From positions 1,822 through 33,821 of the forward strand of contig JAWOFX010000176.1 in the NCBI GenBank assembly GCA_046497275.1: DNA of 32,000 bases, given 5' to 3'. The stretch's first letter is position 1; the number at the start of each line of letters is the position of its first letter. This DNA comes from Promethearchaeia archaeon (GTDB lineage: Archaea > Asgardarchaeota > Lokiarchaeia > Sigyniarchaeales > SOKP01). Positions 15,074 to 17,713 of the stretch are shown here, piece after piece. A model generated the notes under the pieces. That model did no database searches, was not told the DNA's origin, and saw only the letters and a list, made by a program, of their open reading frames with translations. The translations under genes were made by a program, and so were the position numbers.

Positions 15074-17713
15074 TCAAGATTCTTTATTATCACTATTAAT
15101 TTTCGCTTCTGGAATTTGTAAATTGGTTATTTTCTGAGGTTCTGTATTATATCCATTTTTTTCCATAATATTATATAGTTTTTCTGTATTCTTCTTTAAG
15201 GAGGATTCCATTATCTCTTCAGCAAGTAACACATATGAGAATCCAGTTAAGAAAGGAATACCCCAAAAAAATACTAATGTCATAAAAAACCCAAAAACTA
15301 TATTCATAACTTCTCCTTGAAAAAATCCTGAAAAATCTACAGTTGAGAAAAATTGAATGAAAGTAATTATCGCAGAGATTCCTGCTACTCCCTTAATTAT
15401 GCTCTGAGCCCAAATACTGATTGGTTCTATATCCGCTGGCTGACGATGGCTTTTAGGCTGGCGAAAATACACTAATCCGGTATCATCTAATAGGAAGTTC
15501 CCCGATATGAAAAACGAGAATACAATATAGGTTAATATCATTGGTAAGATGCAGAGTAAATTGAAGCCTACTATAAAATTGAAAAATTTTTCAGTTGCAA
15601 ATTGATCAAATCCCGTTGGATATCCTAAAATGGGGGCTATAGTATTATAAGTATAGAAACCTATCGCGATAGATAATAACAAAGGTAAAAGAATTCTTTT
15701 TAATTTTAATAATAATCCTAACTCATCTCTTCCTTCCATATCTAGCACAATTATATCATTATAGTATCTTTTCGAAATTTTGAATGAGAGATCTCTCAAC
15801 TTTATAAAGAAATAAGCAAAGTTTGGGGCGAAATAATTGTAAATAGCAGCGGTGAGAGGTAATAAAGTATACCAAATTATGGTTGTGGTCAAATATACTG
15901 TCGAAATTTGAGTCATATAATGTCCAGTTATTAATGTCTGGTTAAACACATTGATTTGAAGTAAGAACAATAAAAATGTTAAAGTCATGAGAGAGATGAT
16001 CACAATGTTTACAATTACTGCCAATTTTCGTTTCTTTAAGTTTTGAAGCACTTCTCCGCGCCTAACTTTGAGTCTTTTACCATTTCGTATTACCAGATAC
16101 AATCCAATTAATAGCATCGCAATTATGATAATAAAAACAGGAATCCCTAGGGGGAAAATGTTTGAAAGAAATATAGGAGTTGGGGCTTGCGAAGATAATG
16201 TCATAATTGATTGCCAACTGAAAATCAGAAGATCATTTTCACCATCTCCGTCGAAATCCTCCATTGTTTGCCATGTGTCAGCCCATTGATCTGTATTTAT
16301 AATTGCTAAATTTTTTTTAGTGAGTGGATTGATGATATAATATCGAGTAACATCATTTGGGGAGAGTAATGGATAATGAGGTTTCATTAAGACAATTTCA
16401 CCTAAAGAATCATCATCAAGATCCTCATTAAGGGGGAATATTTTTGCTTCTCCATTAGAAAATACTTGTTCGTATTCCCAGAGGTATTCTTCACTGAAAT
16501 TATAAGAATCAATTTCTTGTATAAAAGCCTTAATTTTATTCGTTCTTGGTTCTTTATAACCCCTTAATAATATAAGGATGTAGGTTTTATTATTATCTTC
16601 TGTGTATCTCAGTTCATTAATTGTAGCATCATGATAATCAAAATCATCATCATTAGTTATATTATACGAAGCTCTGAGAGATCCATCTATTCCATCATAA
16701 ATACTTAGATTCAACCCTTCATTTTCAAAATATTTAGTAAAAATAAGAAATTCATCAGTACCATCCTCATTTTGATCCTTAATTATCCTAAAATCTGATA
16801 TCTGTTGTTGAAAACTTGCTATTAGGGAACTATATATCGGATTGAATGGTTCTAAGGTAGTTCGATTTAAAAGAGCAAATTTAGCATGATCAATATACAT
16901 AATATGTTCCTCTCCATGATGTAAAAATAATTCTAACCGTGGTAAATTATTTTCTACGTAAAAACCATGTGAATCGTATTCCGAACTCATATAATAATTT
17001 AGTTTCTGCGTCCCATTTATAAAATAACTTGTTATATTAACATCATAGTTATCGAAACCTTCTATCGAACCATTAAAAAACTCTAAACAAATTAAATCCT
17101 CTGCTCCATCCTCAAAATTATCGAAACTCAACAAATCAATAAAACCAGTTTTTGGAAAGTCTTCAGATGGCCCATATATTAGATCTGAACCATTCTTACC
17201 TGATATAATCTTATTCGTGAATTGATCAATGAACATATATGCTCTCCAATCACCTCCTCCATTATGGGAATCAAAATACCAACTTTCATTCACTTTAGCA
17301 ACATTTATGAAGTAATCTTGAATCGCATCCCCATCTAAATCAGGTATTGGAAATACTTTTTTTACTGGTCCTTGGAAGGATTTATTCCATATGGTCTTTC
17401 CTTTTAAACCATTAATTGCAACTATAGCACCATATTGAGGTGTATCATATAATATTTCGTCTGAATTCTCTCTATAATCGATATCTGCATAGGAGATAAT
17501 ATCTCTTTTTCCATCACCATTAATATCATCTGTTTCAAATCCTTTTAAATTGATTGAATAGGTTCCTTGAAGATCATCCCAGAACCAACCGGGTTGTAGC
17601 TCCATTTGAGTGATGAAGATCATACTTAACCCTCCCAAAACCAAAAAAGAAATTCCTACAAGTAACCAATTTATAGGCTGTGATTGTGTTTTTTTATTCT
17701 TACTTAAATTCAT
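15074..17713 (-). CDS. Membrane protein: N-terminal signal anchor, FG-GAP-like Ca2+-motif beta-propeller, C-terminal bundle of about 7 TM helices
   Basis: DINGDGKRD, DLDGDAIQD, DNFEDGAED, DQNEDGTDE, DLDDDSLGE and DFDGDGEND motifs within about aa 40-510. Seven hydrophobic segments from about aa 515 to 850. Confidence 0.75.
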   Translation of the reverse strand: MNLSKNKKTQSQPINWLLVGISFLVLGGLSMIFITQMELQPGWFWDDLQGTYSINLKGFETDDINGDGKRDIISYADIDYRENSDEILYDTPQYGAIVAINGLKGKTIWNKSFQGPVKKVFPIPDLDGDAIQDYFINVAKVNESWYFDSHNGGGDWRAYMFIDQFTNKIISGKNGSDLIYGPSEDFPKTGFIDLLSFDNFEDGAEDLICLEFFNGSIEGFDNYDVNITSYFINGTQKLNYYMSSEYDSHGFYVENNLPRLELFLHHGEEHIMYIDHAKFALLNRTTLEPFNPIYSSLIASFQQQISDFRIIKDQNEDGTDEFLIFTKYFENEGLNLSIYDGIDGSLRASYNITNDDDFDYHDATINELRYTEDNNKTYILILLRGYKEPRTNKIKAFIQEIDSYNFSEEYLWEYEQVFSNGEAKIFPLNEDLDDDSLGEIVLMKPHYPLLSPNDVTRYYIINPLTKKNLAIINTDQWADTWQTMEDFDGDGENDLLIFSWQSIMTLSSQAPTPIFLSNIFPLGIPVFIIIIAMLLIGLYLVIRNGKRLKVRRGEVLQNLKKRKLAVIVNIVIISLMTLTFLLFLLQINVFNQTLITGHYMTQISTVYLTTTIIWYTLLPLTAAIYNYFAPNFAYFFIKLRDLSFKISKRYYNDIIVLDMEGRDELGLLLKLKRILLPLLLSIAIGFYTYNTIAPILGYPTGFDQFATEKFFNFIVGFNLLCILPMILTYIVFSFFISGNFLLDDTGLVYFRQPKSHRQPADIEPISIWAQSIIKGVAGISAIITFIQFFSTVDFSGFFQGEVMNIVFGFFMTLVFFWGIPFLTGFSYVLLAEEIMESSLKKNTEKLYNIMEKNGYNTEPQKITNLQIPEAKINSDNKES

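Follow-up and report, generated by a model that had tools for sequence, protein, structure and literature searches.

The window analysed here is a 32,000-nucleotide stretch from the genome of a Promethearchaeia archaeon. The gene under study is an intact ORF at 15074-17713 on the minus strand, running from ATG through stop and encoding a protein of 879 aa (P0001); an earlier note had placed an open frame at exactly these coordinates. Its GC content is ordinary for its genome. At least 166 homologues were found, mostly of 830-880 aa, and the named ones come nearly all from Lokiarchaeota/Promethearchaeota. The gene is real, intact and conserved in Lokiarchaeia. Pfam gave only sub-threshold matches (FAM234 propeller, FG-GAP and PQQ_2). 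A full-length model of the protein reached pLDDT 84.7 and pTM 0.79. The features assigned to the gene are the following.

15074..17713, minus strand: whole ORF P0001, 879 aa, with TM1, eight-bladed Ca-loop propeller, TM2, six-TM core and short cytoplasmic tail
17606..17677, minus strand: TM1, residues 13-36, N-terminus inside
16196..17602, minus strand: extracellular beta-propeller, residues 38-506, eight blades as modelled
17501..17527, minus strand: putative Ca-type loop, blade 1, residues 63-71
17315..17341, minus strand: putative Ca-type loop, blade 2, residues 125-133
17096..17122, minus strand: degenerate Ca-type loop, blade 3, residues 198-206
16751..16777, minus strand: putative Ca-type loop, blade 5, residues 313-321
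16397..16423, minus strand: putative Ca-type loop, blade 7, residues 431-439
16232..16258, minus strand: putative Ca-type loop, blade 8, residues 486-494
16067..16147, minus strand: TM2, residues 523-549, the returning helix of the hairpin
15128..16036, minus strand: six-TM core, about residues 560-862, with a cytoplasmic beta-sheet and C-terminal helix
15371..15502, minus strand: superfamily signature, residues 738-781, on the cytoplasmic side

Its flanking genes, a LuxE-like gene on one side and an MFS transporter gene on the other, are on the same strand. The LuxE-like acyl-protein synthetase gene (17842-19035, minus strand) is directly upstream, in a short-chain dehydrogenase cluster, and is not kept beside homologues. 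Elsewhere in the window are lysine fermentation genes (1792-9343, minus strand: lysine 5,6-aminomutase alpha and beta, lysine 2,3-aminomutase and beta-keto acid cleavage enzyme) and, at 25566-31998 on the plus strand, a gingipain-type C25 peptidase of 729 aa, after which comes a protein longer than 1275 aa that has no Pfam match and runs off the window.

Most likely there are eight TM helices with both termini inside, and the propeller is inserted between TM1 and TM2 as the first outer loop. Three observations lead to this topology. The K+R fraction alternates along successive loops (0.34/0.06/0.43/0.02/0.21/0.02/0.13/0.00/0.14), the high value after TM2 reflecting a very basic cytoplasmic linker (0.43 in residues 544-563). 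Sequons are almost confined to outside segments and lie in the ectodomain and the core's first outer loop. The helix at the N-terminus is conserved and continues directly into the propeller's closing strand; among 110 close homologues, mean identity to the query is 50% for residues 1-40, as against 31% for the ectodomain, and reaches 62% for the last six helices. TM1 also gives a weak profile match to TM1 of a propeller-less form of the family described below (HHalign prob 76%, E 2e-5), and we infer that it is probably uncleaved. The seven helices that the earlier note counted after the ectodomain are all present, as is the polar loop it remarked on (residues 741-766), but it missed the eighth helix at the N-terminus, and its 7-TM bundle is really a 1+6 grouping, or 2+6 for the membrane part overall.

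The ectodomain models as a beta-propeller, the outcome on which the earlier reading of this region hung. Eight strand groups are seen in the model, and the order of strands implies closure by strand 38-45 pairing with strands 480-506. Among fold matches BamB fits well, YesX is included, and most of the top-ranking proteins are eight-bladed. The model thus describes an eight-bladed BamB/PQQ-like propeller, as against the seven blades of integrin.

The pattern Dx[DN]xD-x-x-x-[DE] occurs five times in residues 41-520 (at 63, 125, 313, 431 and 486) where 0.16 are expected, and none of 2000 shuffles reached five. About six DxDxDGxxD/E motifs had been claimed; five canonical Dx[DN]xD loops and one degenerate loop bear this out in number, but the strict pattern occurs once only, at 486. 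In the model each of the six loops sits between the first two strands of a blade (the A-B loop). Positions conserved at 85% or more in 26 diverse homologues are D125, D129, D133, D202, D206, D313, D317, E321, D431, D435, D486 and D494; in the degenerate loop D202 and D206 are conserved and the first position varies. Acidic residues of the Ca-type loops and turn glycines (G105, G172, G175, G341, G344) are the main residues kept in this otherwise variable ectodomain. All three G-x-x-G turns noted earlier are present and conserved, though their number is a weak signal against shuffles (0.73 expected, p=0.04). The ectodomain is indeed rich in sequons, with 11 of the N-glycosylation type against 4.3 expected (p=0.002). 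Judged by motif and position alone, the loops may bind Ca2+.

Calcium-blade propellers of the VCBS supercluster include YesW/YesX, Bap1, FAM234A/B and FG-GAP-like repeats (PMC3123361 Rigden et al.; PMC8023676 Pereira and Lupas). The Lokiarchaeial propeller shares with them Dx[DN]xDG-type A-B loops, each with a further acidic ligand shortly after, at an extracellular site, and has eight blades like YesW. It differs in that each of its ends is joined to a TM helix, within a membrane protein of eight helices, and in also carrying PQQ/BamB-type G-x-x-G-x-x-x-W turns; BamB itself has neither Ca loops nor a TM bundle. The propeller is of a known type, and novelty rests on the membrane core and the architecture. 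An FG-GAP/integrin-alpha-type propeller had been proposed, of which the Ca-type loops stand and the integrin blade number does not. Integrin alpha identity was rejected: integrin alpha has seven blades, thigh and calf domains and one TM helix, whereas the present protein has eight blades and eight TM helices, leaves no room for thigh or calf (between the propeller's end at 506 and the start of TM2 at 523) and lacks the GFFKR tail. Beta-integrin (PF00362) had zero matches in its own genome, which is 98.9% complete, although control genomes gave none either.

The membrane part was modelled with high scores (pLDDT 92.7, pTM 0.88). The core motif is W-x-L-x-D-x-G...K-G-x-A-G; in the query the signature reads W/F-x-L-x-D744-x-G746, then a beta-hairpin, then K774-G775-x-x-G778 at the start of TM7. 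Across all three architectures described below, conservation is 98-99% for D744, 82-99% for G746, 89-91% for G775 and 89-97% for G778, and outside the signature R673 (85-92%) and P820 (80-91%) are also kept. Almost all residues common to the architectures are at the cytoplasmic face. No conserved charged residue is predicted mid-membrane across architectures, and the residues conserved across them include no His/Cys/Ser catalytic set. The propeller-bearing class conserves N588, N591, T593, L594, F702 and F710 in the outer loops of the core. TM7 has a conserved G-x-x-G and the TM helices have conserved prolines. Because it is twice as conserved as the ectodomain (62% versus 31%), the core is taken to be more than an anchor.

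We searched 400 Asgard genomes with residues 556-855 and then read the matching ORFs, an approach the earlier note had proposed for finding the TM module with other ectodomains. The core was found alone, with a bare hairpin, or with hairpin and propeller. Class A (TM1-propeller-TM2-core, 830-1430 aa) had strong matches in about 72 of the 161 genomes of Lokiarchaeia, a count that includes fragments and class B, and none outside that class. The class A gene is accessory and is sometimes tandem or multi-copy. Contig G138:C1 encodes a class A member of 1043 aa. Class B (TM1-TM2 with a short loop, core and conserved tail) is 430-520 aa long, and one member is named Sigynarchaeota. Class C, the core alone (285-350 aa), is found in Lokiarchaeia, Thorarchaeia and further Asgard families. 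Four class C paralogues occur in the query's own genome (E 1e-24 to 1e-26); these stand-alone six-TM cores might assemble with the fused protein into a hetero-oligomer.

C91:8668-9570, minus strand: stand-alone six-TM core
C84:25663-26574, minus strand: stand-alone six-TM core
C59:2047-2895, plus strand: stand-alone six-TM core
C167:18141-19106, plus strand: stand-alone six-TM core

A profile of all three classes matches 241 of the 400 genomes, which is a lower bound since five candidates per genome were scored. Most superfamily members have no ectodomain. A search of 1.84 billion representatives returned 105 matches, and those long enough to classify fit the three architectures or are fragments. 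The tree sets class C apart from A and B (SH-aLRT 99) and unites class B as one group (100). Class A monophyly has p-AU 0.50, and the tree therefore fits either gain or loss of the propeller. A 1434-aa class A protein (L049:5385-9686, minus strand) has an extra cytoplasmic C-terminal region of ~200 aa without a Pfam match, possibly an output domain, and in a class B gene (L044:6151-7521, minus strand) the C-terminal tail abruptly ceases to align with the family, as a frameshift or assembly error would cause.

By sequence and model comparison the six-TM core is apparently an undescribed family spread across Asgard archaea. Among known transporter, channel and membrane-enzyme families in Pfam none matches more than 5 of 119 core members, and those weakly. 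NCBIfam gave no match, and the best PDB sequence match had E 0.05 over one or two helices. The model of the membrane part has no clear fold match in the PDB. Structural matches to the core are only Asgard hypothetical proteins (TM 0.59-0.61): unnamed ESM Atlas clusters from Promethearchaeota (294 aa, TM 0.61) and Thorarchaeota (325 aa, TM 0.59) represent the stand-alone form, differing from the query in having no TM1-TM2 hairpin, propeller or annotation. The core does not match Oxa1/YidC/EMC3 or the EMC membrane subunits. We found no published description of the six-TM core or the three-class architecture in the literature. The earlier receptor-like reading had turned on the TM module lying outside well-known transporter and enzyme families, and no clear match to one came from PDB, Pfam or NCBIfam.

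GPCR identity was rejected, as the helix bundle fails to superpose (TM-score 0.13-0.24, rmsd mostly 16-29 A), in keeping with the earlier caution that helix count does not imply GPCR homology. The layout resembles adhesion GPCRs, with an ectodomain predicted from its sequons to be glycosylated, then seven helices and the C-terminus inside. The protein differs from them in its cytoplasmic beta-sheet, extra N-terminal helix and evolutionary unit of six helices, and in having no GAIN domain or GPS site before the first helix, where only 16 residues separate the last propeller strand from TM2 and Pfam finds no match. For heterotrimeric G-alpha (PF00503) the best score in its own genome was 27.7 bits against a cut-off of 48.8, from partial matches, and control genomes were also below the cut-off. 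The 7TM ion channels (insect Or/Gr and prokaryotic 7TMICs; bioRxiv 10.1101/2023.08.30.555482) similarly have long helices projecting into the cytoplasm and short outer loops. Identity with these seven-helix, N-in/C-out proteins was rejected too, since charge bias and sequons give eight helices with both termini inside.

No neighbour is shared between classes in the loci compared. PadR and HSP20 genes are the most frequent neighbours of the fused form: in 16 of 22 close loci an HSP20 gene, usually with PadR, lies upstream of it on the same strand. These loci come mostly from two sister genera and are hence not independent, and downstream genes vary. Small-GTPase genes were seen in 5 of 66 loci compared, and the same 66 loci have no conserved signalling-gene neighbour. 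Class B genes at L092, L093, L045 and L046 are beside molybdopterin biosynthesis genes and mostly also a tRNA intron endonuclease gene, which is probably lineage synteny. In the window, 9895-11493 (minus strand) encodes a 532-aa coiled-coil-rich protein without a real Pfam match, and at five further loci (L051, L073, L075, L078 and L089) homologues of it are encoded beside or near a class A gene. In one lineage the class A gene directly abuts an upstream gene for a beta-helix (NosD-like) surface protein that carries acidic Ca-type repeats and has an anchor at its C-terminus, suggesting coupled translation.

L040:4431-6740, minus strand: beta-helix surface protein gene abutting class A
L042:1407-3740, plus strand: beta-helix surface protein gene abutting class A
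L049:9686-10591, minus strand: beta-helix surface protein gene abutting class A

We tentatively prefer, at somewhat short of even confidence, to read the fused protein as a Lokiarchaeial surface sensor in which a lid braced by Ca2+ is coupled to a docking foot in the cytoplasm. Bound in the six A-B loops, Ca2+ would brace the propeller, with these loops presumably facing the membrane side, where both propeller termini exit, and the propeller would cap the core's outer loops like a lid. The ligand of its variable outward face would be a glycan or protein carried by a partner cell or particle, and binding would shift the helices and alter the conserved foot. The foot (small beta-sheet, R673, D744, W768, K774-G-x-x-G778 and C-terminal helix) would dock a cytosolic partner or lipid head group, and stand-alone cores may give the same output from other inputs. 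The model suggests a defined pose of lid on core, because the larger domain by itself, at 53% of the chain, could not account for a pTM of 0.79 over 879 residues; the class-specific conserved outer loops also argue for docking. Further points for a sensor are the conserved cytoplasmic-face residues, the accessory nature of the gene and the adjoining beta-helix surface gene in one lineage. Against it, no member examined has a fused signalling domain, including stand-alone cores of other Asgard families, no signalling gene recurs as a neighbour in the 66 loci, and as most superfamily members lack an ectodomain, the basic job of the core need not be reception. The PadR/HSP20 neighbours fit a stress role equally well.

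The earlier note had inferred an adhesion or ligand-binding ectodomain coupled to a polytopic membrane module, possibly a signalling receptor or gated transporter; this is supported in part, though not as integrin or GPCR, and a sensor is preferred to a transporter. A capped channel, transporter or lipid scramblase of new fold, probably oligomeric, with the propeller capturing substrate or gating the outer mouth, we regard as unlikely but worth serious weight. Several core-only paralogues per genome are what transporter families show, the TM7 G-x-x-G and helix prolines suit a pore or hinge, and the query lies among same-strand genes that include an MFS transporter. That neighbour, however, is kept in one close relative only, no known transporter or channel gives a clear match in sequence or fold, and the membrane interior has no predicted conserved charge. 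Less probable is a quality-control or assembly factor, a BamB/EMC1-like scaffold for surface proteins in folding or insertion, its gene being under a PadR regulator and switched on along with that of a small heat-shock protein. The HSP20 loci and the good BamB fit speak for it, but the genes are separated by ~250 bp, the link is absent in the query's own genome and in all distant members, the BamB and EMC1 matches are generic propeller matches, and the core does not resemble Oxa1/YidC/EMC3.

Slightly more doubtful again is an enzyme embedded in the membrane that works on lipid or glycan of the cytoplasmic leaflet through a D744/R673/K774 site, or else catalysis by the propeller, as in the Ca-blade lyases YesW/YesX. 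A near-invariant Asp does lie with conserved Arg and Lys at the inner interface, and eight-bladed Ca-blade propellers can be enzymes, e.g. YesX (PMC3123361). Yet only one acidic residue is invariant, a metal or nucleophile set is lacking, the candidate polar propeller residues (E211, R457, N473) vary in moderately distant members, the propeller is dispensable, and no biosynthetic neighbour recurs across classes. A passive adhesin, its propeller binding a surface and its helices merely anchoring, would suit the sequon-rich, acidic, variable VCBS/FG-GAP-type ectodomain, but it is very improbable since one helix suffices for anchoring and the core is the most conserved part, kept without an ectodomain across Asgard archaea.

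If the sensor reading is true, the protein works like an adhesion receptor outside the integrin, GPCR and 7TMIC families. Rather unlikely, though worth stating, is the wider proposal that the core is a membrane fold without described relative serving as a general Asgard signal-transducing module, and the lid a Lokiarchaeial contact receptor for partner cells, an adhesion-GPCR-like design reached independently. Should the protein be a transporter, it would still belong to a membrane family that is widespread and multi-copy in Asgard archaea and whose confidently predicted structure has no clear PDB match. The stand-alone, propeller-less and propeller-capped forms together make a real conserved family, apparently undescribed as judged against PDB, Pfam and NCBIfam; the main risk to novelty may be a remote relative known only from AlphaFold DB. 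Labels such as 'integrin repeat' or '7TM' on such proteins do not mean integrin or GPCR ancestry.

Cultured Lokiarchaeia have no ordered S-layer, and their surface shows many densities, as yet unassigned, that are thought to serve contact between cells (PMC9834061). The family is a concrete candidate for how Asgard cells sense partners, and it offers a natural three-step comparison of core alone, core with hairpin, and core with hairpin and propeller. A member is present in the genome of the cultured Ca. Lokiarchaeum ossiferum.
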